Assembly (NCBI GenBank): GCA_934271715.1
Contig: CAKQRZ010000009.1
Location: 9,613 to 73,612, forward strand
DNA: 64,000 bases
Reading direction: 5' to 3'
Origin: an uncultured Alphaproteobacteria bacterium
GTDB taxonomy: Bacteria; Pseudomonadota; Alphaproteobacteria; RF32; CAG-239
Shown piece by piece: positions 8,295 through 62,215 of the stretch (the stretch's first letter is position 1; each line of letters opens with the position of its first letter). Position numbers and translations under genes: made by a program. The notes under the pieces were generated by a model. It was not told the origin of the DNA. It was given only the letters and a program-made list of their open reading frames with translations, and ran no database searches.

Positions 8295-8948
8295 CTAAAA
8301 TCTTATGCCGATATTGCATTCTCCGTCTAAACCATCGCAAAATTTGCACATCGCCTGAAAATCTGAAAGTGTGGACGAGGCTATACATTTTCGGTCTTTC
8401 GTACCGCAATATTTAGCGCCGTAACGGGTTGTTCCAGACCAATCATTTGCTGAATTAGCAACAGTAACGCGGAATAGCTCCGAACTTAGCGGCAAGGCGA
8501 GGTTATTCAATAATTCCGTGCATAGCTTAACCGAAAAGTTTACGCTTACCGACGCACCGCTTTCATTTTTAGTGGTTCCGCCTAAATACATATCAAAAGA
8601 TAGGAGTTCGCCGTTCAAAAGATAGGCAGCTACGTTATTTCCCTGAGAATCCTTATACCATATCTTGCTTTGTTTAACCCAGCTCTCTGGCACCATATTC
8701 ATTGCCGCCATAGTATCTGCGAGAAATACCTGATTTTGCGGATTAGAACGTAACAGATTGTCTTTATGCTCCAGCAGCTGAAAAATAACATTGCTGTATT
8801 CTTCCACCAATTTATTAACTTTAAACTTCTCCATAGCCTTGGAGTAACCGGCGATACCACCGACACTTAACACACCGATAATCGCCAGCACTCCCAGCAT
8901 TTCTATCATGCTGCGGCCAAAGGAATTTGCGCCTCTAGCACCCGTCAT
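8295..8948 (-). CDS. Type IV pilin-like protein with Cys-rich C-terminus (paralogue 1)
   Basis: MTGARGANSFG|RSMIEMLGVLAIIGVLSVGGIAGYSKAMEKFK prepilin-type N-terminus; C-terminal CKFCDGLDGECNIGIRF. The ORF stays open in frame upstream to 9395 through the GC-rich modules. Confidence 0.75.
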   Translation of the reverse strand: MTGARGANSFGRSMIEMLGVLAIIGVLSVGGIAGYSKAMEKFKVNKLVEEYSNVIFQLLEHKDNLLRSNPQNQVFLADTMAAMNMVPESWVKQSKIWYKDSQGNNVAAYLLNGELLSFDMYLGGTTKNESGASVSVNFSVKLCTELLNNLALPLSSELFRVTVANSANDWSGTTRYGAKYCGTKDRKCIASSTLSDFQAMCKFCDGLDGECNIGIRF

Positions 8949-9440
8949 ACTAGGCCCTGTGCCTAGTATCTTGTGGCACCAAGGGCGTGGCAATCCAGAA
9001 CCCTCGCCCCGTGAGGGAGAGGGGGACGCCTTGGCGTCGGGTGAGTGGTACTTAAAGAACGAGCAAAAGGCACTAGACAAGCGTTCCCGGCACCAGCCTG
9101 AAACGTCATACTTGTTGCCACACCCCACAGGCTGTGGCAGACGAGTATCCATGACTTTGTTGCTGTAAGCAACGCTTTTTTGTTTACTTGCCACCAGAGA
9201 GAACCCGCGTCCCCGGCACCAGTCATTCTTGGGTTTATCCCAAGAATCTTCTCTCAATAGGCACTTATTTAATAAGGCTAATTTATTGACTAGGTTAGAT
9301 ACTTGTTGCCAGAAGATTCTAGGCACAGGGCCTAGAATGACTGGTGCTAGGGACGCTAGCTTAGTGTTTGTTGTGGTGTTTGTGTTACCCCTCACCCGGA
9401 GCGCTGCTCCGACCTCTCCCTCAAGGGGCGAGGCTGTCAG
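8949..9440. repeat. GC-rich palindromic leader modules (modules C1, D, C2), with an inverted second C1+D copy at 9297-9440
   Basis: ctaggccctgtgcctag hairpin, gacgccttggcgtc palindrome, ccctcgccccgtgagggagaggg hairpin, and the block encoding MDTRLPQPVGCGNKYDVSG. 8935-8990 and 9297-9356 are about 85% identical in inverted orientation. Confidence 0.7.
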
Positions 9441-9490
9441 TTTGCTTCTGTGCGTGTTATTTCTGAATATATCATTTTTTCTGCCAAACC

Positions 9491-9660
9491 CTGCAAAAAC
9501 GTGCTTGACGGCAGAAAAAGCGTCTTTAATCAGATGTTCAGGATTTGCAGAGAGAGAGAGAGAGACCTTTGCTTAGCTTATTTTTCATCTTTCTTTCCTC
9601 ATTTTTAAGTTAATTTACATTTTTATTCTATGCCAGCCATATTCCCTATGTCAACCGGAA
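9491..9660 (-). promoter_or_regulatory. Class A pilin leader: sigma70-like promoter, RBS and uORF with a (CT)n tract
   Basis: Minus-sense TTGACA-N17-CATAGAAT, then gaggaaagaaagATG; uORF MKNKLSKGLSLSLCKS* contains the 17-nt tc run (plus 9549-9565). This is followed by a ctgcaaa/tttgcag inverted repeat. Confidence 0.6.
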
Positions 9661-9676
9661 AATGAATTAGCATATT

Positions 9677-10336
9677 TTAAAAATCTATAGTAACAGAACA
9701 CACTTCTTTTTTTGAACAAAGTTCACAGTTGTCATGTATTTCGCTGATACTAATGTTATTTAAACACTTTCGTCCTGCAGAACAATTTTTATCGCCATAA
9801 AAAATTGATGAATTTCCAGCAGATCTAAAAAAAAGTAATAGTTCTAAGGAAGAATGTAAGGGCTTAACCACATTACTGACAAGTTCGGTACAAAATTTAG
9901 TGGAAAAATTTTCGGTTATCCATGAACTTTCATCAGGAAATTGTGAACCACCTAAGACAAAATCAAAACGAAGATTTCCGTTTCTTGAATAAATAGCGAT
10001 AATATTGCTATATGGGTCTTCAAATAAATTTTCTTGTGTAGAATCTAAATTATTTGTTTTCATATTCCAAGTTGGCGGAACTAAATTTAAAGCGTTTGCT
10101 AGTTTTATAAGTGGAGTAGTTTTTCCGTCCACATATTTAGTGGAATATTTAAATTCATCTAGGTGTTCCAACATTCCATAAATTAAGTAGCTATATTCTT
10201 CAATCGCCTTATCAAGCTTAAATTTCTCCATAGCTTTGGAATATCCGGCTATTCCGGCAACGCTCAGTACGCCGATAATCGCCAGCACGCCGAGCATTTC
10301 AATCATGCTTCTCCCTTTTTCTAAATTCTTATACAT
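9677..10336 (-). CDS. Type IV pilin-like protein with Cys-rich C-terminus (paralogue 2)
   Basis: MYKNLEKG|RSMIEMLGVLAIIGVLSVAGIAGYSKAMEKFK; C-terminal CELCSKKEVCSVTIDF. GGAG RBS sits before MYKN. Confidence 0.8.
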   Translation of the reverse strand: MYKNLEKGRSMIEMLGVLAIIGVLSVAGIAGYSKAMEKFKLDKAIEEYSYLIYGMLEHLDEFKYSTKYVDGKTTPLIKLANALNLVPPTWNMKTNNLDSTQENLFEDPYSNIIAIYSRNGNLRFDFVLGGSQFPDESSWITENFSTKFCTELVSNVVKPLHSSLELLLFFRSAGNSSIFYGDKNCSAGRKCLNNISISEIHDNCELCSKKEVCSVTIDF

Positions 10337-10366
10337 ATTTCTAACTCCGTTTAATTTGTTGTACAT

Positions 10367-10570
10367 AAAACAAAACCCGCTACAAAAAGCGGGCGGATGT
10401 TCAGAAACCGTACGAAAACAAACGGCTCGGCTTATTCAGCTCATAGCCATATTCAGCCGACATCCGCCTAACAGACAGAAATCGGCATAACAAGTTTTAA
10501 GTCGCTATGCATAACGACTGTTTTCGTAAAGGGGTTCTGACGCCCTAGACAGACTATCGTCTATCCAAAA
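10367..10570 (-). promoter_or_regulatory. Class B pilin leader with intrinsic-terminator hairpin (putative attenuator or riboswitch)
   Basis: Conserved about 190 nt shared with 30788-31030, 47270-47464 and partly 42520-42746. Minus-sense ...catccgcccgctttttgtagcgggttttgtttt lies just 5' of the RBS. Confidence 0.55.
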
Positions 10571-10724
10571 ATTATTTTAACGGAATAATATGCGAAAGTA
10601 AAGGATTTTTATAATTAAGTAAAAACAAAGCATTATCAGGATATTGCTTTAAACAAAAAAAGACTTTCATTACAAATTGCTGTACACAATCTGTGATGAA
10701 AGTCTTTATTAAAGATACTTGGCG

Positions 10725-11573
10725 TTATTTGCCCATCAATTCTCTGCGGTCACAGCTGCGATAAATGAGCCATTTGTAAATGGACAGCATTTTCTCGTTT
10801 CCGGCAACGGCCAAATCTTCAGGATGCCATTGCACACACAAAATACCATCATCCATATTGCCCCAAGCTTCCGGAATGCAATCAGATGAAATCGCGTAAA
10901 TATCCAAATCGCTGTTTTTGTCGTCCGGTATAACTCCTTCACGATGGCGGGAATTTACTGTAATTTTCTTACCTAACCACGCGCGGAGCGGAGTAGCCGG
11001 ATAAATAATAACCTGATGAGCATTGACTTCAGAAGTCTTGTGTTCAATAGATGAACGAGTTTCGTTCAGGTTACGGTACAGCTTCATGCCATGAACACCT
11101 GCCACCATCTGAGCGCCTGCGCAAATACCTAAGATAGGAATTGCGTTTTCTTCGGCCACGCGGATGGCTTCAATATACGCCTTAGAACGAAGACTCGGTT
11201 CTTCAGGACTGTTAACGCGGGTTGCGTAGAATTCATCCGGAGAAACAAACGCTCCACCAGGCAGAACAAGTCCGTCAATTTCAGCCATTTGGGTTTCTAC
11301 TTGGGTATAGGTTAAACCCATGATGCGTCCGCCGGCCATGCAGATTGCCTTAGCGTAGTTGTAGTCTATAGAATAGTGTCCTTTCTCGCGTCCCAGCAAA
11401 AAACCGATTGTCGGAGCATCTGCATCATAGTCAAGTCCTAGTTCTTGCACTTCATCCCAGGGAAACAGAATTACAGGAAAATCGCCTTGTGCAATAACCT
11501 GATTTACTTTTTCGTCTGAAATTACATACGCGTTAAACTGAGGCTCATAAACCAAATATAAAACCTTTTGCAT
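10725..11573 (-). CDS. Class I glutamine amidotransferase-like, C26 gamma-glutamyl hydrolase (PuuD-like)
   Basis: GICAGAQM nucleophile-Cys motif and VQWHPE His-Glu motif. Confidence 0.65.
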   Translation of the reverse strand: MQKVLYLVYEPQFNAYVISDEKVNQVIAQGDFPVILFPWDEVQELGLDYDADAPTIGFLLGREKGHYSIDYNYAKAICMAGGRIMGLTYTQVETQMAEIDGLVLPGGAFVSPDEFYATRVNSPEEPSLRSKAYIEAIRVAEENAIPILGICAGAQMVAGVHGMKLYRNLNETRSSIEHKTSEVNAHQVIIYPATPLRAWLGKKITVNSRHREGVIPDDKNSDLDIYAISSDCIPEAWGNMDDGILCVQWHPEDLAVAGNEKMLSIYKWLIYRSCDRRELMGK

Positions 11574-12396: not shown

Positions 12397-13263
12397 TTAG
12401 AAAATTTTGTCAAGTTTTATTTTGTAGTTTTGCGCCTGCTGCGCCAGCCAGTTATATATGCGCTGCATAGAAATATCTCCGTTGGCGGCAAAGTCTTCGG
12501 GGTGCCATTGAATGCACAGTATATCTTTTTCAGAATTTCCCCAGGCTTCCGGTACATTGTCTTCCGTGCGGGCATAAATCGTCAATTTGCTGTCTGAAGC
12601 ATAAGGCAACATAGATTCCGTGTGGCGCGAATTGGTTTCAATCTCCTCAGTTTGCAAAAGGTCAAACAGCGGCGAGGGCTTTTTAATTAAAACTTTATGA
12701 GCGTCTAAAATCTTGGTTTTATGCTCAATATCCGTGTTGGTATATTGTTTGGTGTTGCGGTACATTTTCATACCCAGCATGCCGCCAATCATCTGGGCAC
12801 CGGCGCAGATGCCCAGCATTGGCAAATTCTGCTGCAAAGCGGCGGTTATGCAGTCAAGATAGGCTTTAGCACGGGCTTCATATTTGGCAGAGAGCTGCGG
12901 CGCGGCGTCGCAGTAAAATTGTTCAGGCGACGGAAATCTTCCGCCCGGCAAAATTAAGCCGTGAATTCCGCTCATTTGCTTGGTGCAGGCAGAGTAGGTT
13001 AAAAAACGGATATTTACGCCGGATTGCAAAATAGCGCGGGCGTAGTTATAGTCAATAGTGTAGTAATTTTCATCGCGTCCCAGCAAAAAGCCGATGGTCG
13101 GTTTGTCTTCTTTCGGCGCGGAGGCAAGCTGCTCAATATCCTGAGGAGCTAAAGAAATTAAAGGAATTATATTTTGTTTTTCAAATAAGTTTATTTGCTC
13201 ATCGCTGATGCCGTAAGCTTCGTATTGCGGCAGATATTCTAAAGTAACAGATTGTGTGTGCAT
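12397..13263 (-). CDS. C26 gamma-glutamyl hydrolase-like, paralogue of 10725-11573
   Basis: GICAGAQMIGG and IQWHPE; same architecture and N-terminal extension as its paralogue. Confidence 0.65.
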   Translation of the reverse strand: MHTQSVTLEYLPQYEAYGISDEQINLFEKQNIIPLISLAPQDIEQLASAPKEDKPTIGFLLGRDENYYTIDYNYARAILQSGVNIRFLTYSACTKQMSGIHGLILPGGRFPSPEQFYCDAAPQLSAKYEARAKAYLDCITAALQQNLPMLGICAGAQMIGGMLGMKMYRNTKQYTNTDIEHKTKILDAHKVLIKKPSPLFDLLQTEEIETNSRHTESMLPYASDSKLTIYARTEDNVPEAWGNSEKDILCIQWHPEDFAANGDISMQRIYNWLAQQAQNYKIKLDKIF

Positions 13264-13424: not shown

Positions 13425-14192
13425 CTATTTAAGTTTATAGACTGTTATCTGACGAACTTTGAAACACTCAACCAACATACCGGGTTTGGCATTAGCCCAT
13501 TTAGGGTCATCATAAGTATGTAATCTGACTTTGTGACCGTTGGTAAAGGTTACATCAATAATGGAGATTGTAGCTCTGTCTTGCGTTTTATTATCTCGGA
13601 TTATTGTTTTGTTGATTTCAGATTGCGTATTAGCAGAATACCACTGAACCTTTTGAGCAATGCTTGGTTCTAAGTTTTTTTCAAATTGTTTTGATGTCCA
13701 ATTATTGCTTAAATGCACAGAATAAGCTTTATAAGCCGAAACCAATTTAACATCTTTAATTTTCAGAAGCTTTCTGTCTTTTTTATAAACAGGTTGAAGA
13801 ATTCTGCCATCAGAATAAAGCAGCATGTCTTTTCTATATAAACCTTCTTTATATTTATGAAAAATTGAACTGACTTTTTTTGCTGGGTAAACTTGCTCGA
13901 AATCAGTGGGCCAATGAATTGTAGTGATGATTACTTTTTTCAATTCACTGTCATATAGATAATTAGGTTGAGAGTAGCAGAATTCAAGCGAAGTTATAGC
14001 ATCTGATTTACAAATAACTCTTGAGGTGTACCAATCACGCATTGCATAACGCATACCTTTAACAAAGAAAGAGGATTTTTCATATAAGCTTTCTTTAACT
14101 TTTATATTATCCAGTCTATAGAACCTGATTTGAGCCGAAGCGTTAAAGTTAAACACAAAAGCCATCAAGATAACTAAAAATAATCTCATCAT
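13425..14192 (-). CDS. Hypothetical secreted protein (copy A of a tandem duplication)
   Basis: Signal peptide MMRLFLVILMAFVFNFNASAQIRFY...; the C-terminus ...VRQITVYKLK is shared with 14382-15158. Confidence 0.5.
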   Translation of the reverse strand: MMRLFLVILMAFVFNFNASAQIRFYRLDNIKVKESLYEKSSFFVKGMRYAMRDWYTSRVICKSDAITSLEFCYSQPNYLYDSELKKVIITTIHWPTDFEQVYPAKKVSSIFHKYKEGLYRKDMLLYSDGRILQPVYKKDRKLLKIKDVKLVSAYKAYSVHLSNNWTSKQFEKNLEPSIAQKVQWYSANTQSEINKTIIRDNKTQDRATISIIDVTFTNGHKVRLHTYDDPKWANAKPGMLVECFKVRQITVYKLK

Positions 14193-14381: not shown

Positions 14382-15158
14382 CTATTTAAGTTTATAGACA
14401 GTTATCTGACGAACTTTGAAACGCTCAACAATCATACCAGGTTTGGCATTTTCCCATGCAGGTTTATTGTACCATTTGGGGTCATCATAGGTCTGAAGTT
14501 TTACTTTTTGACCATTTGTAAATGTCACTTCTATGACAGATATTTTTTTCTTTTCCTGAAAAACAACATCTGTCGCATTGTGCTTACCTTGTTTGTATTC
14601 TGCAGCCCAAGTTAAAGATTGTTCAGGTATCCAATGATAGATGTTTGCCATAAACTGAGCGTTAGTCCAATTTGTGCCTAGTGTTACTTTTTGAGAATTA
14701 TATTCAGAGCATAACTTTATTGATTTAATTTTCAAAAGCAGTCTGTACTGCTTGCTAATCATTTCAACGGTTGCGCCGTCAGAGTATAGTAATTGCCCTT
14801 TTGTATATGATCCATATGCCAGTGCAGCATTATAAGGAGTGTATGTTTGCATATATTCCATCGGAGGATTGGTGCATTTTGTCACTATACTTATTTTTTC
14901 TAAATATCCATCTCGTTTATAGTCTGCATCAATATAGGTTAAAGAGCCGGAGGAACAAAAATACTTTCCTTTATAGCTATGAGTTTCTGTTTTAGGAAGA
15001 AGCAACATGCTCTTTCCCATATAAACAATCCTTGTTCCTGTTGTCTCGTACGTCCTATCTTTAATTTGTATATTATCCAGACTATAGAATCTGATTTGAG
15101 CCGAAGCGTTATAATTAAACACAAAAGCCATCAAGATAACTAAAAATAATCTCATCAT
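14382..15158 (-). CDS. Hypothetical secreted protein (copy B of a tandem duplication)
   Basis: N- and C-termini identical to copy A with a divergent middle; the upstream 165 bp and the downstream terminator are duplicated exactly. Confidence 0.5.
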   Translation of the reverse strand: MMRLFLVILMAFVFNYNASAQIRFYSLDNIQIKDRTYETTGTRIVYMGKSMLLLPKTETHSYKGKYFCSSGSLTYIDADYKRDGYLEKISIVTKCTNPPMEYMQTYTPYNAALAYGSYTKGQLLYSDGATVEMISKQYRLLLKIKSIKLCSEYNSQKVTLGTNWTNAQFMANIYHWIPEQSLTWAAEYKQGKHNATDVVFQEKKKISVIEVTFTNGQKVKLQTYDDPKWYNKPAWENAKPGMIVERFKVRQITVYKLK

Positions 15159-21718: not shown

Positions 21719-22374
21719 CAAAATTCTAAAACTATGGCGCAGATTTTTTCTTCATCAATACAATAGTTGCAAATATCATTGATATCAGAAAGCGTAATTG
21801 AGCTTAAACATTTTGCGTTTGGATTATCCTTGCATGTGCTGTCTCCATAATATGCAGCACCGGATTTATATGTAAAAAAGATATGGTGTACGGCAGAATG
21901 CAGAGGCTGAACCAAATCAGTCATTAAACTTTGACAGAGTTTACCCGAAAAATTAGTATTGTGAGCAATATTGCCGTCTTCATCCAAAGCGCCGCCCAGA
22001 TACATGTCTATAACCAGCCGGTTGTTGCGTGAAAATAATTGAATAATATTGCCGTAAGGGTCATACATTCGGCGGAAGTTTATTTTTTTATAGCTATCCG
22101 GAACCAGATTTAAGCCAAAAGCAAAATCAATCAGTCCGGCAGATTCTATAAGGTTGGTATTTTCGCTGTTTAGTTTTTGTATATAGTCTAAGTTTTCCAA
22201 CAGTCCATAAATTAACATACTGTATTCATCCATAGCCTTATTGAGCTTAAATTTTTCCATAGCTTTGCTATATCCGGCAATGCCGCCGACACTTAAAACT
22301 CCTATAATCGCCAAAACGCCGAGCATTTCAATCATACTGCGGCCAAGCGGGTTTGTGCCTCTGCCACCAGTCAT
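21718..22374 (-). CDS. Type IV pilin-like protein with Cys-rich C-terminus (paralogue 3)
   Basis: MTGGRGTNPLG|RSMIEMLGVLAIIGVLSVGGIAGYSKAMEKFK; C-terminal CNYCIDEEKICAIVLEF. The ORF is open upstream to 22617 through modules C1, D and C2. Confidence 0.75.
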   Translation of the reverse strand: MTGGRGTNPLGRSMIEMLGVLAIIGVLSVGGIAGYSKAMEKFKLNKAMDEYSMLIYGLLENLDYIQKLNSENTNLIESAGLIDFAFGLNLVPDSYKKINFRRMYDPYGNIIQLFSRNNRLVIDMYLGGALDEDGNIAHNTNFSGKLCQSLMTDLVQPLHSAVHHIFFTYKSGAAYYGDSTCKDNPNAKCLSSITLSDINDICNYCIDEEKICAIVLEF

Positions 22375-22720
22375 CCTAGGCCGTGACGCACAGTCTGTAC
22401 CTAGGATCTTGTCGCACCAAGGGCGTGGCAATCCCTCTCCCCCTGCGGGAGAGAGTGACGCCTTGGCGTCGGGTGAGGGGTATTTAAAGGACTCGCAACA
22501 AGAATTAAATAGGCGCCTAAAGCCCAAACCCGAAACGTCATACTTGTCGCCACACCCTGCAGGCTGTGGCAGACGAGTATCCATGATTTTGTTGCCAACG
22601 GCAACGCATATTGACATTGCTTTAGCAATGGCGTTATGGATTCTCCGCCATGGTACTTCCGGCAGGGAGTACCGGCGAAGAATGACGCTGAGAGTGGAGG
22701 CGGAAAAGCGCGTGAACGTG
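22375..22720. repeat. GC-rich palindromic leader modules (C1, D, C2 and an extended C2)
   Basis: cctagg...cctagg hairpin, gacgccttggcgtc, ctctcccgcagggggagag, and the block encoding MDTRLPQPAGCGDKYDVSG. 22560-22700 is the reverse complement of 62470-62640. Confidence 0.7.
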
Positions 22721-22781
22721 CCGCCTGCTAGTTTAGTTCTTAATGCGTTATTTCTGAAAGTGTCATCTTTTCTGCCAAACC

Positions 22782-22960
22782 CTGCAAAAACGTGCTGAGC
22801 GGCAGAAAATATGCCTTTAATCAGATGTTTAGGATTTGCAGAGAGAGAGAGAGAGACCTTTGAATAGCTTATTTTTCATCTTTCTTTCCTCTTATTTTAG
22901 TTAATTACTATACTCATTCTATACCAGCCGCACTCCATAAGTCAACCGTAAAATCAAAAT
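22782..22960 (-). promoter_or_regulatory. Class A pilin leader (promoter, RBS, uORF with a 17-nt tc tract)
   Basis: Minus-sense TTGACT-N17-TATAGAAT; uORF MKNKLFKGLSLSLCKS*; run at 22840-22856. Confidence 0.6.
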
Positions 22961-29984: not shown

Positions 29985-30787
29985 AACTCCAGAGTTACGG
30001 TACAGCTTTGCACGCCGCCTTCACAGCCGTTGCATTCATCGTTAATTTCGTCCAGAGTAATGTCGTTAAGGCATTTTTTGTCGCCGCCGCAATAGGCATC
30101 GCCGTAAAATTGCGTATTGTTGGCGCCGGATTTATAAATCCATGCATATTGCACGGCACTATGCAGCGGCTGAGCTAAATCGCTCATCAGGGCGCGGCAT
30201 AGCTTAACCGGAAAATAAGGTGTGAATCCGGTGCCATCATCATTATTTGTAAAACCGCCAATATGAAAATCCATAACCAAATTGCCGCCGCGGGAAAAAA
30301 CACTAACCATGTTGCCGTCAGAATCAATAAGCTGATTTATGGCGTTGTTGCTATGCCAATCGGCAGGAACTAAATTTGCCGCAAGCACATAGTCGCGCAG
30401 CCCGCATTCTTGCCAATTTGCTACCCAATCATTACATTTCAGCTTCTTAAATTCGTTTACATTTCCAATCATTCCCGCCACTAAATAGCTGTATTGTTCT
30501 ATAGTTTTGTTGATTTTAAACTTTTCCATCGCCTTTGAATAACCGGCAATCCCGCCAACCGATAATACTCCAATTATTGCCAGAACGCCTAGCATTTCAA
30601 TCATACTGCGGCCAAGCGGGTTTGTGCCTCTGCCACCAGTCATCCTAGGCCGTGACGCACAGTCTGTACCTAGGATCTTGTGGCACCAAGGGCGTGGCAA
30701 TCCAAAACCCTCGCCCCGTGAGGGAGAGGGTGCAGACTTGTCTGCGGGTGAGGGGTACTTAAAGACATTTTCAAATAATTTATACAT
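29981..30787 (-). CDS. Type IV pilin-like protein with Cys-rich C-terminus (paralogue 4); leader extended in frame by palindromic modules
   Basis: GGAGG RBS then MYKLFENVFKYPSPADKSAPSPSRGEGFGLPRPWCHKILGTDCASRPRMTGGRGTNPLG|RSMIEMLGVLAIIGVLSVGGIAGYSKAMEKFK; C-terminal CNGCEGGVQSCTVTLEF. Modules D and C1 (gcagacaagtctgc palindrome, cctagg hairpin) insert 150 nt in frame relative to paralogue 2. Confidence 0.7.
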   Translation of the reverse strand: MYKLFENVFKYPSPADKSAPSPSRGEGFGLPRPWCHKILGTDCASRPRMTGGRGTNPLGRSMIEMLGVLAIIGVLSVGGIAGYSKAMEKFKINKTIEQYSYLVAGMIGNVNEFKKLKCNDWVANWQECGLRDYVLAANLVPADWHSNNAINQLIDSDGNMVSVFSRGGNLVMDFHIGGFTNNDDGTGFTPYFPVKLCRALMSDLAQPLHSAVQYAWIYKSGANNTQFYGDAYCGGDKKCLNDITLDEINDECNGCEGGVQSCTVTLEF

Positions 30788-31030
30788 ATTTCTAACCTCC
30801 GTTTAATTTGTTGTATGCAAAACAAAACCCACCAAAATGGCGGGCGGATGTTGAGAAACCGTATATAACCAAACGGCTCGGCTTATTCAGCTCATAGCCA
30901 TATTCAGCCGACATCCGCTCAAGCGAAAATCGGCATAACAAATTTAAGTCGTTTATGCATAACGACTGGTTATATAAAGGGTTCTCACGCCCTAGACAGA
31001 CTATAGCCTATCCAACAATCATTTTAGCTA
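30788..31030 (-). promoter_or_regulatory. Class B pilin leader with terminator hairpin
   Basis: Minus-sense ...catccgcccgccattttggtgggttttgttttgca just before the RBS; 7-bp hairpin agtcgtt-atgcat-aacgact near the 5' end. Confidence 0.55.
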
Positions 31031-31176
31031 AAGATAATCTGAAAGTAAAGACATTTTTATTTCACAAAATCAAAAAATAAATACACTTTTTAAGATTTTT
31101 CTAAAAAAGTATTTAATTTATTGCAAAGACGAATTGTCTACCTCCAAGTTAATATATTGAAGAGGAATATAACATA

Positions 31177-42329: not shown

Positions 42330-42746
42330 TATTACTACAAAATAACATTTAAATCAATTTATTTTTATAGCTTTATACAGCCTAACTAATTATCAATAAG
42401 CTGCCACACGACGTCAAAAAAACTGTAAAATATGCGGAACCAGCCTCCTCCATAAGTTAATTACTAAGACAATGTGCTGTAATAAGAAAAACATCTTTAC
42501 TTTCCGATTATCTTTAGCTAAAATAGATGTTGGATAGGCGATAGTCTGTCTGGGGTGTCGTAGCCTCTTATTCATGCGTCTATATGACGTTAAATATCTT
42601 CTAGCTTTATAGCTGGAAGGTAGCAAAATATGCCATATTCGCAATGGTTAATATGCTGCACTATAATCATGAATAATAGTTACGAACTTCCAGCTGTCTC
42701 GCCGACAGCTTTTTTGTTACACGAAAAATAATGAAAGGAAGTTACG

Positions 42747-43397
42747 ATGAAACAAAATCAATTAGGCAGAAGTATGATAGAAATGCTCGGCGTACTGGCA
42801 ATAATTGCAGTTTTAAGCGTCGGCGGGATTGCCGGATATTCTAAAGCCATGCTGATGTGGCATTCAAATAAGCAGAAAGACTTACTGGCAACGCTTATCA
42901 ATAATGCTATCACGCTTAAACCCAATTTATCTACTTTGAGGGAAAATCGTTCGCAGACTATTACTGATGTTTTTATTGCGATGGGCGGTGTACCGGAGGG
43001 TTTTACCTATCAAAACAATGTGATATATGATGCCGATAATAATTCAATCAGCATAACTTACGGGATTGAGTATGATAGGCAAAGAGATGATTCTTTGGTA
43101 AAAGTATTTAAATATGCTATCAGAATCAGCGCTATTGAGGGAACAGGCAAGCTTTCCATATCTATGAAAGAGTATTGCAAAAATTTGATTATGGCTGCTC
43201 AGTCAGCGCCGAATGAAGTTCTGTCTGTAGATTTTTCCAGCATAGATTCTGATTCTTGGTCAGGCACCAGCGGAGCTTTGATTTTTAACCGCAGCACCCG
43301 AGGGCAGACCTCTCCGGCGCAGATAAATGAACGCTGCAATATAGCCATTAAAGAAAACGGGCGAGGTTACTTTAGAATTTTGCTGAATCCAAATTAA
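42747..43397 (+). CDS. Type IV pilin-like protein (divergent paralogue 5, no Cys-rich C-terminus)
   Basis: MKQNQLG|RSMIEMLGVLAIIAVLSVGGIAGYSKAM. Preceded by a partial class B leader box (ggataggcgatagtctgtctgggg) and a terminator hairpin cagctgtctcgccgacagcttttttg. Confidence 0.75.
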   Translation: MKQNQLGRSMIEMLGVLAIIAVLSVGGIAGYSKAMLMWHSNKQKDLLATLINNAITLKPNLSTLRENRSQTITDVFIAMGGVPEGFTYQNNVIYDADNNSISITYGIEYDRQRDDSLVKVFKYAIRISAIEGTGKLSISMKEYCKNLIMAAQSAPNEVLSVDFSSIDSDSWSGTSGALIFNRSTRGQTSPAQINERCNIAIKENGRGYFRILLNPN

Positions 43398-46676: not shown

Positions 46677-47269
46677 GTACTAAAAATGATATGAATAATA
46701 ACATATCAGCAAATATATAATTTATCTGCTTAAAGGAAGCGAATAGGGAAAATCGGGAATTTTCAAGAGCTATGAACAAATTGTGAGCTGTTTTAATGAA
46801 ACAGCCTGCAAAGGTCGGGGAGTTCGCAAATCATAATTCAGATTGATTTCTTACACCTTTAAAAGCATTAGAACCGATTAACACTTTTTGTACATACATG
46901 TAAGACTCCCCGCTGTTGGAGATATATTCCTGCAAGAGGAACTAACAAGCTTTCTGAATTATTAACTTGCGACAGTTAAGCGGCATATTTCATACCGCAG
47001 AATAAAGCTTTTATGAAGCGGAATATATAATATATTATTGCATAATGCAATATATTTTTTTAAAACCTGACAAAAAGTCTAATATAAAATGTAAAAGATG
47101 TAGTTTAATATTATATTATTCTAAATAAAGTAGAATATGCGGAAAATAGTAAATAAGCAGCAAAAAATAATTATTTTATAAAATCATTTGACTCGCGCCA
47201 AAAAATTATATAGCCTTATTTATAGATATGGAAAACCATATTCAGGGCGTCGAAAACCCTTTTACTAAA

Positions 47270-47464
47270 TTGAATAGTCGCTTTTGAGCATAAGCGACTT
47301 AAAATCGTGTATGCCGACTTCTGTTCTAAGGGACGGATGTCGGTGAATAAGGCTATATGCTGAATAAGCCGAGCCGTTTTTTTATTCAATTTAGTGACGG
47401 TTTTCGAACATCCGCCCGCTTTTTACGGCGGGTTTTGTTTTTTATATAACAAAATTAAACGGAG
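47270..47464 (+). promoter_or_regulatory. Class B pilin leader with terminator hairpin (plus-strand copy)
   Basis: agtcgcttttgagcataagcgact hairpin ... catccgcccgctttttacggcgggttttgtttttt, then aaacggagttggaaaatATG. Confidence 0.55.
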
Positions 47465-54787: not shown

Positions 54788-54882
54788 ACTCCGCCCGGTA
54801 TAACCCTCTCCCTCAAGGGGCGAGGTTGTAGGTTTTGTTCTGTGCGTATTATTTCCGAATGTGTGATTTTTTACGCTGAACT

Positions 54883-55050
54883 CTGCAAAAACGTGCTGAG
54901 CGGCAGAAAATATGCCTTTAATCAGATGTTTAGGATTTGCAGAGAGAGAGAGAGAGACCTTTGCTTAGTTTATTTTTCATCTTTCTTTCCTCTAAAATTA
55001 TGTTGTTTACGTACCAATTCTATAACAGACGTTTAACTAAAGTCAACAGG
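54883..55050 (-). promoter_or_regulatory. Class A pilin leader (promoter, RBS, uORF with a 17-nt tc tract)
   Basis: Minus-sense TTGACT-N17-TATAGAAT, then gaggaaagaaagATG; uORF MKNKLSKGLSLSLCKS* (plus 54930-54980); tract at 54941-54957. Confidence 0.6.
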
Positions 55051-55247
55051 TAAATATATCAAAGATATGACACCGGCAGAAATTAGTGAGGCTTGCCAAA
55101 TGTGTAAAGATAACGGAGAAAATGCTTGTTTCATATTGATGTATTTTTAGACATGTAATACACTTTATTAAAATATACATATTGACTTTTATGAGTTAAT
55201 ATTTTATTGCTTATTCAAATAGTTATTTTTATGTCAAACTAATTTTT

Positions 55248-61870: not shown

Positions 61871-62037
61871 GTACCTCCAATGTACACTAGGATTTTTTTC
61901 GCAGCTAGAAACCACTTTATCTACACCGCTCTCCGCAGTTTTGAAGAATTTTGCGGCGCATTGACGCACGGCATCCAAAGTCTTAAATGCGATGTTGGTT
62001 AGGTTAATTTCTTGTTTGCTGATTTTTTCAAAAAACT

Positions 62038-62215
62038 CTGCAAAAACACGCTGAGCGGCAAAAAATACGCCTTTAATCAGATGTTTAGGATTTGCAGAGA
62101 GAGAGAGAGACCTTTGCTTAGCTTATTTTTCATCTTTCTTTCCTCTTAAATTAAGTTGTTTACTAGATTTATTCTATACCAGCCTTACTCCATAAGTCAA
62201 CCGCAAAATCAAGGC
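62038..62215 (-). promoter_or_regulatory. Class A pilin leader with a shorter, 15-nt tc tract
   Basis: Minus-sense TTGACT-N17-TATAGAAT; uORF reads MKNKLSKGLSLSLQILNI* because the tract (plus 62096-62110) is one dinucleotide shorter than in the other three copies. Confidence 0.6.

Follow-up and report, generated by a model that had tools for sequence, protein, structure and literature searches.

Four pilin-like genes in the 64-kb window (the whole stretch of DNA that was analysed) are each preceded by a promoter-proximal leader of ~190-220 nt, which raises the question of whether, and how, this leader controls the gene behind it. A riboswitch or attenuator gating these paralogues had been proposed in the preliminary description, and our results supported this proposal, with a competing, covarying anti-terminator pairing found in the leader. 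Judged from its sequence, the leader very probably attenuates transcription in cis from the 5' end of the pilin mRNA, through three mutually dependent layers.

Leader copies and their genes

The four leaders of the window fell into two classes, with three A-type copies (A, B, and C) and one divergent D-type copy (D). The gene at 42747 had been thought to share the leader only in part, but copy D proved to be a complete member of the second sequence class with identical architecture. The copies and their genes were located as follows (the element names are those used below).

10367-10572, minus strand: copy A leader, A-type; related copies precede the gene starts 30787 (minus), 47474 (plus), and 42747 (plus)
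10345-10349 and 10334-10336, minus strand: Shine-Dalgarno sequence CGGAG and ATG after copy A, pilin-like gene 9677-10336
30819-31049, minus strand: whole of copy B, A-type, with promoter 31021-31049, leader 30819-31015, and terminator 30819-30845; gene start 30787
47188-47443, plus strand: whole of copy C, A-type, with -35 element 47188-47193; gene start 47474
47226-47241, 47331-47343, 47408-47416, and 47414-47443, plus strand: P0, Y, Z, and terminator of copy C
42496-42718, plus strand: whole of copy D, D-type, with promoter 42496-42524; gene start 42747
42532-42551, 42598-42606, and 42611-42619, plus strand: P0, X, and Y of copy D
42620-42659, 42660-42680, 42687-42695, and 42692-42718, plus strand: P5, P6, Z, and terminator of copy D

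The prepilin domain TIGR02532 scored 15.3 bits in the gene of copy A and 12.3-15.9 bits in the regulated genes, all under the cut-off of 16.3, and the Pfam search of the regulated pilin-like genes gave no match. The prepilin-like motif, G followed by RSMIEMLGVLAII with Glu at +5, was visible in 8/8 genes, and some homologues carry the NCBI name "type II secretion system GspH family protein". Sister pilin genes in the same window had a second mode of control, slipped-strand (TC)n phase variation.

Beyond the window, the leader was found in over 100 further copies in uncultured gut Alphaproteobacteria. A same-strand ORF followed the leader in 108/114 copies, with at least 64 clear pilin-like genes, and the leader was present upstream of 10/10 pilin homologues picked by protein similarity alone. 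Some leaders were followed by unrelated genes, including those of a PEGA-domain lipoprotein and an EcoRI-like methylase, and this gene context of pilins, lipoproteins, and a methylase would imply no particular ligand. The D-type was not detected at E <= 1e-3 by nhmmer with a sequence profile of the A-type, so its detection needed a structure-aware model. In the metagenome scan, a D-type pattern recovered only 3 loci, and further D-type copies were obtained through the pilin homologues. No match (0) was obtained in the scan of viral contigs with a pattern free of Z, and no prior description of this leader was found in the literature searched.

The terminator fold and its 5' clamp

The elements of the terminator fold in copy A, all on the minus strand, are listed in the order of transcription.

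10574..10602, minus strand: promoter-like site TTTACT-17 nt-TAAAAT, a consensus match
10547..10566, minus strand: P0, 5'-terminal hairpin GGAUAGAC-GAUA-GUCUGUCU, pairing kept while the sequence varies among copies
10533..10545, minus strand: P1 5' strand GGGCGUCAGAACC, pairs with 10395-10409, part of the anti-antiterminator clamp
10519..10528, minus strand: P2 5' strand UACGAAAACA, pairs with 10411-10420
10500..10519, minus strand: P3 hairpin AGUCG...CGACU, covarying in the A-type alignment
10506-10510 and 10485-10489, minus strand: pseudoknot of the P3 loop GCAUA with UAUGC
10473..10486, minus strand: segment X GCCGAUUUCUGUCU, 5' arm of P4, sequesters Y in the terminator fold
10456..10469, minus strand: segment Y AGGCGGAUGUCGGC, 3' arm of P4 in the terminator fold or 5' strand of the anti-terminator stem
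10392..10409, minus strand: P1 3' strand (10395-10409) overlapping segment Z ACAUCCGCC (10392-10400)
10367..10394, minus strand: intrinsic terminator GCCCGC-UUUUUGUA-GCGGGU followed by UUUGUUUU, two pairs changed on both sides

The terminator lies between the transcription start and the RBS on the strand of the gene, ~20-35 nt upstream of the RBS/start codon. The scan recognised the GC stem and U-run noted in the preliminary description as terminator-like in 4/4 window copies, and the compensatory variants reported in the stem were real: in the alignment of 84 sequences, the pair 234/255 was GC in 57, GU in 17, and AU in 9, and the pair 236/253 was UA in 39 and CG in 25. From the position of the promoter-like site, transcription of copy A would start at the first bases of P0. 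Upstream of 87/101 A-type copies there was such a site, and its -10 element stopped 27-28 nt short of the GGG anchor.

Covariation supported the 5' hairpin, the long-range clamp P1/P2, P3 with its pseudoknot, P4, P5, and the terminator. In the A-type terminator fold (84 sequences), 95.1% of the cells were paired and 20 pairs were changed on both sides, with a covariation score of 0.334 compared with 0.137 for shuffles and <=0.084 for slid controls. In the D-type fold (9 sequences), 98.3% were paired and 23 pairs were changed on both sides. Compensatory double substitutions occupied 533 cells in the A-type and 63 cells in the D-type, and, against dinucleotide shuffles, the folds of copy A (z = -7.3) and copy D (z = -6.8) were much more stable than expected by chance. 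G-U pairs were also conserved, for example at two positions in 84/84 A-type sequences. Because these would be A-C mismatches on the opposite strand, the structure belongs to the transcribed strand. A multi-helix junction together with a pseudoknot, both conserved and supported by covariation, was found in the leader, as in an aptamer-like domain.

Three pairing elements of the preliminary description were recovered here, namely the 5' box as the 5'-terminal hairpin P0 (10547-10566), the AGTCGTT/AACGACT hairpin as P3, and the second stem GCCGA...TCGGC as the base of P4. At the position of P0, copy C contained the unrelated hairpin ATATGG-AAAA-CCATAT. In P1, three pairs were changed on both sides, and six covarying alleles were consistent in 98/101 copies. 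In P2, all of the 7/7 pairs were changed on both sides in the 84-sequence A-type alignment, the 5' strand occurring in 69 and the 3' strand in 59 different versions, and in an alignment-free test the mean duplex energy was -7.9 kcal/mol for cognate strands versus -1.1 for non-cognate strands.

The pseudoknot was 96.9% paired with changes on both sides in 3/5 pairs, a value reached by 0/500 shuffles, and it was absent from the D-type copies. Kissing of homodimers via a palindromic P3 loop AUGCAU was rejected, since most loops were non-palindromic and the pseudoknot with UAUGC fitted the covariation better. P4 of the A-type was 99.7% paired with one-sided changes only, and its D-type equivalent covaried. 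Segment Y of copy A resembles a Shine-Dalgarno site. GGA sites of the CsrA type were also considered; the GGA of the P4 loop was unconserved and only that of Y was conserved, ~130 nt from the Shine-Dalgarno sequence.

The anti-terminator three-way junction and the proposed switch

The alternative pairing sought in the preliminary description exists: Y pairs with Z, and this stem is mutually exclusive with the terminator. Z, the complement of Y, takes in the last part of the P1 3' strand and extends 3-4 nt into the 5' arm of the terminator, an overlap also present in copy A. Y:Z encloses two hairpins, given here for copy A.

10427..10455, minus strand: P5 hairpin with the symmetric GAAUAA/GAAUAA internal loop
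10407..10426, minus strand: P6, GCCGU-(P2 3' strand 10411-10420)-ACGGU, in the anti-terminator fold only

In the nine D-type sequences, Y:Z comprised 9 bp and was 98.8% paired, and in three of its pairs both sides had changed. Columns 95, 96, and 98 of Y covaried both with X (89, 88, and 86) and with Z (183, 182, and 180). In the A-type, Y and Z were both invariant and Z belonged to the search pattern, so the direct covariation of the anti-terminator stem comes from the nine D-type sequences and P6. P6 was CCGU/ACGG in 94 and CCAU/AUGG in 4 A-type copies, and CUAU/AUAG in 8 and CCAU/AUGG in 1 of the D-type copies. The outer stem of P5 in copy A (UCGGC/GCCGA) competes with the base of P4. The inner GGC/GCY stem was supported by the copies found without the DNA pattern (L115, L123, and L131), and the D-type equivalent of P5 had 4 pairs changed on both sides. 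The GCU/AGC variant of P5 given by RNAalifold was contradicted by the pattern-independent copies L123 and L131, while L115 was compatible with it. A covariance model built from the A-type three-way junction alone detected the D-type junctions at 35-43 bits. Terminator and anti-terminator are two mutually exclusive folds with covariation behind them, in a leader that is associated with the genes downstream.

Few unpaired nucleotides were common to both types, namely UUAAA behind P3 and AAUA in the loop of P5, which would usually be atypical for the aptamer of a single small molecule. By eye, the motifs of P0 and P5 did not match a GNRA tetraloop and its 11-nt receptor, nor was a hammerhead-like core matched.

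The energies of the two folds were compared in 101 copies at the point before the 3' arm of the terminator is made. In the whole leader, the anti-terminator was disfavoured by a median of 18.6 kcal/mol, and at no transcript length was it the minimum-energy fold of the full leader. In the 3' domain alone, it was disfavoured by 2.5 kcal/mol and was the minimum-energy fold in 19 of the 101 copies. These predicted energies suggest that termination is the default state, with the genes off. Since the anti-terminator was never the minimum-energy fold of the full leader, it would require an effector, and with the 5' clamp acting as an anti-antiterminator, read-through would need one as well. The modelled energies indicate a default-off design with an activating factor and not a simple ligand-stabilised P1.

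We propose that the three layers work as follows. The first would be the intrinsic terminator directly upstream of the RBS, and the second the three-way junction in which the Y:Z stem encloses P5 and P6. In the third, the 5' strands of P1 and P2 would draw the junction strand and the loop of P6 away from the three-way junction, while segment X would lock Y into hairpin P4. The RNA alone would thereby adopt the clamp-plus-terminator fold and keep the genes off, and a trans-acting effector would tip the balance toward read-through; both termination and read-through would be expected to occur in these leaders. Such an effector could stabilise the conserved three-way junction, including P5 with its symmetric AAUA/AAUA internal loop, or could prevent closure of the clamp by the 5' strands or by the P3-UUAAA module. 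If it exists as we infer, an RNA-binding protein and a small ligand are about equally likely.

Known RNAs and rival explanations

The Rfam comparison suggested in the preliminary description was run with Rfam 15 on the window and 18 loci, and no family reached its gathering threshold. In the scans of copies A, C, and D at E <= 10, only sRNA-Xcc1 was notable. PyrR scored 18.8 bits (threshold 54, E = 2.2), and the T-box families gave no match for the leader. Cyclic di-GMP had been named as a candidate ligand, but no c-di-GMP-I/II or other known riboswitch family matched at E <= 10. On these comparisons we regard the leader as a new RNA family.

The leader nevertheless shares its logic with several classical systems. 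The 1:2/2:3/3:4 pairings of the trp leader, PyrR, S-box/SAM-I, and T-box all use the same terminator, anti-terminator, and anti-antiterminator scheme, and T-box and c-di-GMP-I also occur in many copies per genome. Compared with these attenuators and riboswitches, the leader showed no match in sequence or structure and is without a leader peptide, specifier loop, or T-box sequence. Its anti-antiterminator is an unusually long clamp of ~20 bp round the whole leader, which, unlike a typical riboswitch P1, should form without ligand. Termination is also the default in the leaders of BglG/SacY (RAT), ANTAR, HutP, and GlpP, as predicted here. In these protein-dependent leaders the factor stabilises an anti-terminator over the 5' arm of the terminator, presumably likewise in ours, and one leader is common to a regulon of many genes. 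The symmetric RNA motif of the leader could suit a dimeric protein, whereas the known protein targets are ~30 nt with one or two hairpins and the anti-terminator here is an 80-nt three-way junction with a 5' clamp. The c-di-GMP-II riboswitch before pilA1 of Clostridioides difficile likewise places a structured leader and terminator before a type IV pilin-like gene, but the architecture of c-di-GMP riboswitches differs from that of the leader.

The closest known system was sRNA-Xcc1 (Rfam RF02221), an 88-nt RNA seen by Northern blot, which occurs in Xanthomonas integron cassettes and other mobile elements, is multicopy with homologues in Xylella, and has been described as a stand-alone trans-acting sRNA whose mechanism is not established. 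It shares with the leader the three-way junction with a closing stem of ~9 bp, the first hairpin with its AAUA/GAAUA internal loop, the second hairpin GCCGU...ACGGU, and the junction strand GUUU-NNN-AAC; the same junction fold was obtained independently as the constrained anti-terminator fold. Over the full length of the RF02221 model, copy A scored 28.8 bits and copy C 27.9 bits (gathering threshold 53), and D-type copy D gave no match. The leader-junction model scored a verified sRNA-Xcc1 member, which reaches 72.6 bits with Rfam's own model, at 30.8 bits (E = 4e-5). Members of sRNA-Xcc1 also lie just upstream of a same-strand gene, BRO-family (L132) or symE (Xanthomonas), the verified member at a distance of ~38 nt. 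The leader differs in its ~100 extra 5' nt (P0, the P1/P2 5' strands, P3, the pseudoknot, and X), the predicted transcript starting ~100 nt upstream of the junction, and in the canonical terminator that overlaps the closing stem. It is possible, though we hold this only tentatively, that the three-way junction is an autonomous ligand or protein sensor common to the leader and sRNA-Xcc1 and that the leader represents a new class of ON switch, in which an effector on the junction would overcome the 5' clamp and switch on the surface pilin repertoire.

The same resemblance would also suit stand-alone, multicopy sRNA genes that act in trans and lie before pilin genes incidentally, or a second, trans-acting role of the leader. 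Every copy comes with a promoter-like site and a terminator of its own, the 3' domain resembles an RNA of 88 nt detected by Northern blot in Xanthomonas, the homologues in Xylella are multicopy, and a short RNA would be the main product under default termination. We consider this unlikely, because the Shine-Dalgarno sequence of a same-strand gene lies 20-35 nt from the terminator in 108/114 copies, with no room for, and no conserved, second promoter between the terminator and the gene; the 10/10 independently chosen pilin homologues carry the leader, and the verified sRNA-Xcc1 member itself lies ~38 nt before a gene on its strand. Moreover, the pairing that destroys the terminator has been preserved by covariation, which implies that read-through is selected for. 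That the likeness among copies reflects recent duplication or gene conversion of pilin cassettes with their promoters, with no RNA function, is barely credible. The downstream genes are paralogous and some leaders are mosaic, with one P2 allele combined with different P0 hairpins and downstream genes, but the hundreds of compensatory double substitutions, the complete turnover of helix sequence with pairing kept, and the presence of the leader before unrelated genes contradict it, and the alignment-free P2 strand test argues against an alignment artefact.

Control could also act mainly on translation, with the anti-Shine-Dalgarno-like Z pairing with the RBS, the Shine-Dalgarno mimic Y relieving it, and the hairpin and U-run serving as a structural or stability element. 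Z and the Shine-Dalgarno region of the gene behind it are indeed complementary, each type in its own way: in the D-type, AACUUCC with GGAAGUU gave -9.65 kcal/mol, whereas shuffled Z gave -2.7 and the 16S anti-Shine-Dalgarno -5.3, and in the A-type copies linked to lipoprotein genes GGAUGUU and AACAUCC are fully complementary. In most A-type pilin genes, however, Z paired with the Shine-Dalgarno sequence no better than the 16S rRNA did (-7.4 vs -7.1), and Z is already paired in both supported folds, with P1 and the terminator or with Y, which leaves the Shine-Dalgarno site free. With a canonical U-tract and a hairpin stem that covaries as an independent helix, mainly translational control is very unlikely. 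A role for a leader peptide, in which ribosomes translating a short ORF from the AUG in UAUGCCGA would mask X and release Y for pairing with Z, is highly improbable. In the A-type, this AUG hardly varies; it lies directly before X and follows an unstructured A/U-rich stretch, and the short ORFs stop within the P4 loop or shortly behind it. It is nonetheless not preceded by a Shine-Dalgarno sequence and is missing or shifted in L030, L105, L100, L074, and most D-type copies; the substitutions in X follow RNA pairing (U-G to C-G) and not codons, and the UAUGC motif is accounted for by the covarying pseudoknot with the P3 loop. The length and sequence of the ORF were unconserved, and no conserved short ORF with an RBS was found.

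For cis-acting attenuation, the reading we prefer, the architecture is unusual among attenuators, with an anti-antiterminator clamp of ~20 bp round an anti-terminator that is a three-way junction. If it holds, an orphan RNA switch that is large, well structured, and present in very many copies would join a short list, and the covariation is strong enough to warrant biochemical screens for ligands and proteins. The leader also suggests another, testable view of the sRNA-Xcc1 family, which has long been known but whose mechanism lacks an explanation. If the junction is a sensor, sRNA-Xcc1 before symE and BRO genes would be cis-acting 5'-UTR switches and not trans-acting sRNAs. More than 7,600 protein clusters belong to the pilin-like family, and a single genome contains dozens of leaders. 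The leader and (TC)n phase variation in one window suggest layered control of surface variation, and a switch that works as proposed would control the largest surface-protein family of common uncultured gut Alphaproteobacteria.

Leader copies and the genes behind them

The leader was present in four copies in the window. Copy A was laid out on the minus strand, from 10602 to 10334, in the order promoter, leader, Shine-Dalgarno sequence, and ATG.

Features of copy A
10574-10602, minus strand: sigma-70-like promoter, TTTACT-17 nt-TAAAAT, from a consensus scan
10367-10572, minus strand: leader, about 200 nt
10345-10349, minus strand: Shine-Dalgarno sequence CGGAG, between leader and ATG
10334-10336, minus strand: ATG of a 219-aa pilin-like protein

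Kindred leaders lay 5' of the genes starting at 30787 (minus strand, copy B), 47474 (plus strand, copy C), and 42747 (plus strand, copy D). Copies A, B, and C are of the A-type, and copy D represents a different class by sequence, the D-type, known from nine distinct sequences.

A DNA-pattern scan, in which the pattern was built from two conserved leader boxes and each species was represented by one genome, matched at least 109 stretches. Among the matches listed, all but one came from uncultured gut Alphaproteobacteria MAGs, whose hosts were human, sheep, yak, deer, and chicken, the sole exception being a chance match in Morganella; these matches comprised 101 distinct full-length copies, with up to about 17 in the densest MAG. 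A same-strand ORF with a Shine-Dalgarno sequence began 20-35 nt past the leader in 108 of 114 copies. Clear pilin-like genes stood behind at least 64 of those 108 leaders, and many others were pilins with long N-terminal extensions; further linked genes encoded lipoproteins (one with a PEGA domain), EcoRI-like adenine methylases, and kinase-like and acyltransferase-like proteins. Independently of the pattern, ten pilin homologues were chosen by protein similarity only (42-78% identity) and their contigs fetched. All ten, which were solitary genes amid housekeeping genes, carried an A-type or D-type leader upstream.

Mosaic leaders were also observed, one P2 allele (ACUAAAUUGAAU) being found beside four distinct P0 hairpins, and ahead of different genes, across genomes (L005, L017, L026, and L079, loci outside the window, compared with window 47226-47443), which suggests from sequence that leader modules recombine with one another. 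The leader of another outside locus, L035 (1350-1552, minus strand), had no ORF behind it, and positions ~1280-1350 were apparently the 3' end of an opposite-strand tRNA gene; this leader may be orphaned or decayed.

Eight genes in the window encoded the prepilin-like motif (G followed by RSMIEMLGVLAII), four with this leader and four with a different 5' region. The pilin-like proteins of the window scored 12.3-15.9 bits against TIGR02532, just under the cut-off of 16.3, and their family comprised more than 7,600 protein clusters, almost all from uncultured Alphaproteobacteria.

5' regions of the four leaderless pilin paralogues
9434-9666, minus strand: ATG at 9588
22725-22957, minus strand: ATG at 22879
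54826-55058, minus strand: ATG at 54980
62023-62212, minus strand: ATG at 62133

The common 5' region of these paralogues consisted of a strong promoter (TTGAC(T/A)-17 nt-TAGAAT), the Shine-Dalgarno sequence GAGGAAAG, the ATG, and a (TC)7-8 tract in the first codons. All four genes are currently out of frame. The ATG frame ended after 16-18 codons in each, and the pilin domain was in the +1 frame in the three where it was located. This arrangement resembles slipped-strand phase variation, and by that reading the four genes are all OFF at present.

In many pilin ORFs, both in the window and in many outside loci (e.g. L020, L055, L001), a long in-frame insertion separated the start codon from the prepilin cleavage site.

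Window positions in insertion-bearing pilin ORFs
30613-30787: ORF of copy B
8918-9395: pilin ORF
22344-22617: pilin ORF

The inserted peptides resembled translated repeat elements (e.g. ...SPSPSRGEG...PRPWCHKILGT..., ...VITGLVPVILVQ..., ...LNVILRRERSELSGESRN...), and the inserted DNA recurred elsewhere in the window (repeat families D2, D7, and D8). The cleaved-off part of the pilin-like protein appears to tolerate insertions. Among other ORFs of the window, the adjacent 13425-14192 and 14382-15158 shared stretches 89-96% identical (13406-13510/14363-14467 and 14089-14320/15055-15286), and 10725-11573 and 12397-13263 were mutual paralogues, the counterpart of one of which, in the outside locus L113, was annotated Peptidase_C26/GATase.

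Two competing folds

The RNAalifold consensus and the single-sequence minimum-energy folds concurred on a terminator fold, which consisted of a 5'-terminal hairpin P0, a long-range clamp of P1 and P2, P3, P4 (formed by strands X and Y), P5, and a terminator abutting P1. The terminal hairpin and U-run scored as terminator-like in all four window copies, and the single-sequence folds were far more stable than those of shuffled sequence (copy A, z = -7.3; copy D, z = -6.8). In the A-type alignment (84 sequences), 95.1% of cells were paired and 20 pairs changed on both sides (533 cells), with a covariation score of 0.334 versus 0.137 for shuffles and at most 0.084 for slid partners. In the nine D-type sequences, 98.3% of cells were paired and 23 pairs changed on both sides. 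An alignment-free test of P2, whose strands had 69 different sequences on the 5' side and 59 on the 3' side, gave a mean duplex energy of -7.9 kcal/mol for cognate strands versus -1.1 for non-cognate ones; the three variable base pairs of P1 came as six alleles, matched perfectly, in 98 of 101 copies. In addition, the A-type P3 loop GCAUA formed a pseudoknot with UAUGC immediately 5' of X; it covaried (e.g. GCACA/UGUGC and ACAUA/UAUGU) and was 96.9% paired, both sides had changed in three of its five pairs, and the observed value was not reached in any of 500 shuffles. Since G-U pairs were conserved, the structure is that of the transcribed strand.

The Y strand was also complementary to Z, which takes in the end of the P1 3' strand and the first 3-4 bases of the terminator 5' arm. 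When Y:Z was forced in constrained folding, the remainder of the 3' half folded as a three-way junction closed by Y:Z, with UCGGC/GCCGA as the P5 outer stem and the P2 3' strand as the loop of P6, so that P6 and P2 were mutually exclusive. The D-type Y:Z helix had 9 bp, was 98.8% paired, and changed on both sides in three pairs, while Y columns 95, 96, and 98 covaried with their P4 partners in X too. Judged from sequence, such retained complementarity of one strand to either of two partners is the hallmark of a switch. The A-type alignment was uninformative for Y:Z because Y and Z are invariant there and Z was in the search pattern. Compensatory changes were found in P6 of both types (A-type, CCGU/ACGG in 94 copies and CCAU/AUGG in 4; D-type, CUAU/AUAG in 8 and CCAU/AUGG in 1), and a covariance model built from 34 A-type junctions alone detected D-type junctions at 35-43 bits. 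The segments frozen in sequence were those with at least two alternative partners (X, Y, Z, UCGGC/GCCGA, and CCGU/ACGG) and the freely drifting ones were single-partner helices (P0, P2, the middle of P1, and the tops of P3 and the terminator), a pattern that fits the two-state model. A promoter-like match (TTCGCA-18 nt-TATAAT, 10/12 positions) lay across P5 and P6 of copy D (42638-42667, plus strand); it was not conserved among the remaining D-type copies and probably arose by chance.

The leader features listed in the preliminary description were all found on inspection, including a terminator-like site in every window copy. The stems proved conserved across the aligned copies through compensatory changes (A-type, n = 84; D-type, n = 9), the alternative anti-terminator pairing to be looked for was present as Y:Z, with D-type covariation and the P6 changes, and the attenuator reading is backed by covariation for both folds.

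Predicted switching and alternative readings

Nearest-neighbour energies of the folds were compared at the transcript point before the terminator 3' arm exists. In the whole leader, the anti-terminator fold was disfavoured by a median of 18.6 kcal/mol (101 copies). When the 5' domain was omitted, the median gap shrank to 2.5 kcal/mol, and 19 copies had the three-way junction as their minimum-energy fold; in the growing transcript, P6 and Y:Z were never part of the minimum-energy fold. This comparison implied an anti-antiterminator made up of X plus the P1 and P2 5' strands, with termination as the predicted default, as far as nearest-neighbour energies go, from which co-transcriptional kinetics could differ. 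Read-through would then need the junction stabilised or the clamp held open, and an effector would either stabilise the three-way junction or block clamp closure. The modules common to both types, P3 plus the UUAAA that follows it on the 3' side and the symmetric AAUA/AAUA internal loop in P5, are the best candidate contact sites; confidence in any particular effector class (protein, small molecule, or RNA) is low.

Attenuation by a leader peptide is unlikely, since no Shine-Dalgarno sequence was found, the AUG was absent in several A-type and most D-type copies, the encoded peptides were not conserved, and the UAUGC motif was already explained by the pseudoknot. Conservation from recent duplication alone is excluded by the compensatory changes. 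The placement of the leader before a same-strand gene throughout, and the selective maintenance of a pairing that disrupts the terminator, disfavour a purely trans-acting sRNA gene, although the terminated leader may accumulate and have a second role. Translational control is possibly an extra layer, as each type of Z complemented the Shine-Dalgarno region of the gene it precedes in a manner specific to that type (D-type pairing energy -9.65 kcal/mol; shuffled Z, -2.7; 16S anti-Shine-Dalgarno, -5.3); however, Z was occupied and the Shine-Dalgarno site free in both supported folds.

Shine-Dalgarno/Z pairs
10345-10349 with 10392-10400
42737-42741 with 42687-42695

The Y strand itself resembled the Shine-Dalgarno region of the gene that follows, with CGGAGUU or GGAUGUU as the A-type motif and GGAAGUU as the D-type one; this likeness could stem from control at the level of translation or from the way the switch originated in evolution.

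Relation to known RNA families

No family of Rfam 15 reached its gathering score in the window or in 18 loci, and T-box, PyrR, and other riboswitch models did not match the leader. Nor did any c-di-GMP model match it in the Rfam scans, and the ligand proposed in the preliminary description is not supported; the Rfam comparison suggested there did yield a sub-threshold, reciprocal similarity to sRNA-Xcc1 (RF02221). This was the sole notable match at E <= 10 in copies A, C, and D, with full-model alignments of 28.8 bits for copy A and 27.9 bits for copy C (threshold 53) and no match in copy D at that E-value. The alignments used exactly the three-way junction of the leader. Conversely, a search of 135 kb with the leader junction model gave 30.8 bits (E = 4e-5) for positions 1198-1280 of locus L132 on the Pseudomonas aeruginosa plasmid NZ_CP093017.1, a verified sRNA-Xcc1 element that scored 72.6 bits in Rfam. 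The L132 element was ~38 nt 5' of a same-strand BRO-family gene, a position that suits a 5'-UTR element better than a stand-alone sRNA gene. The sRNA-Xcc1 family, first found as an 88-nt RNA, lies upstream of symE in Xanthomonas integrons and is multicopy in Xylella. Because the threshold test failed, the leader is not an RF02221 member; for its anti-terminator domain, distant kinship or structural analogy to sRNA-Xcc1 is probable. A literature search found no description of this pilin-gene leader.

Taken with the covariation of both folds, the leader is likely a cis-acting termination switch. It is a new RNA family, in which a known principle (terminator, anti-terminator, and anti-antiterminator) takes an unusual architecture.
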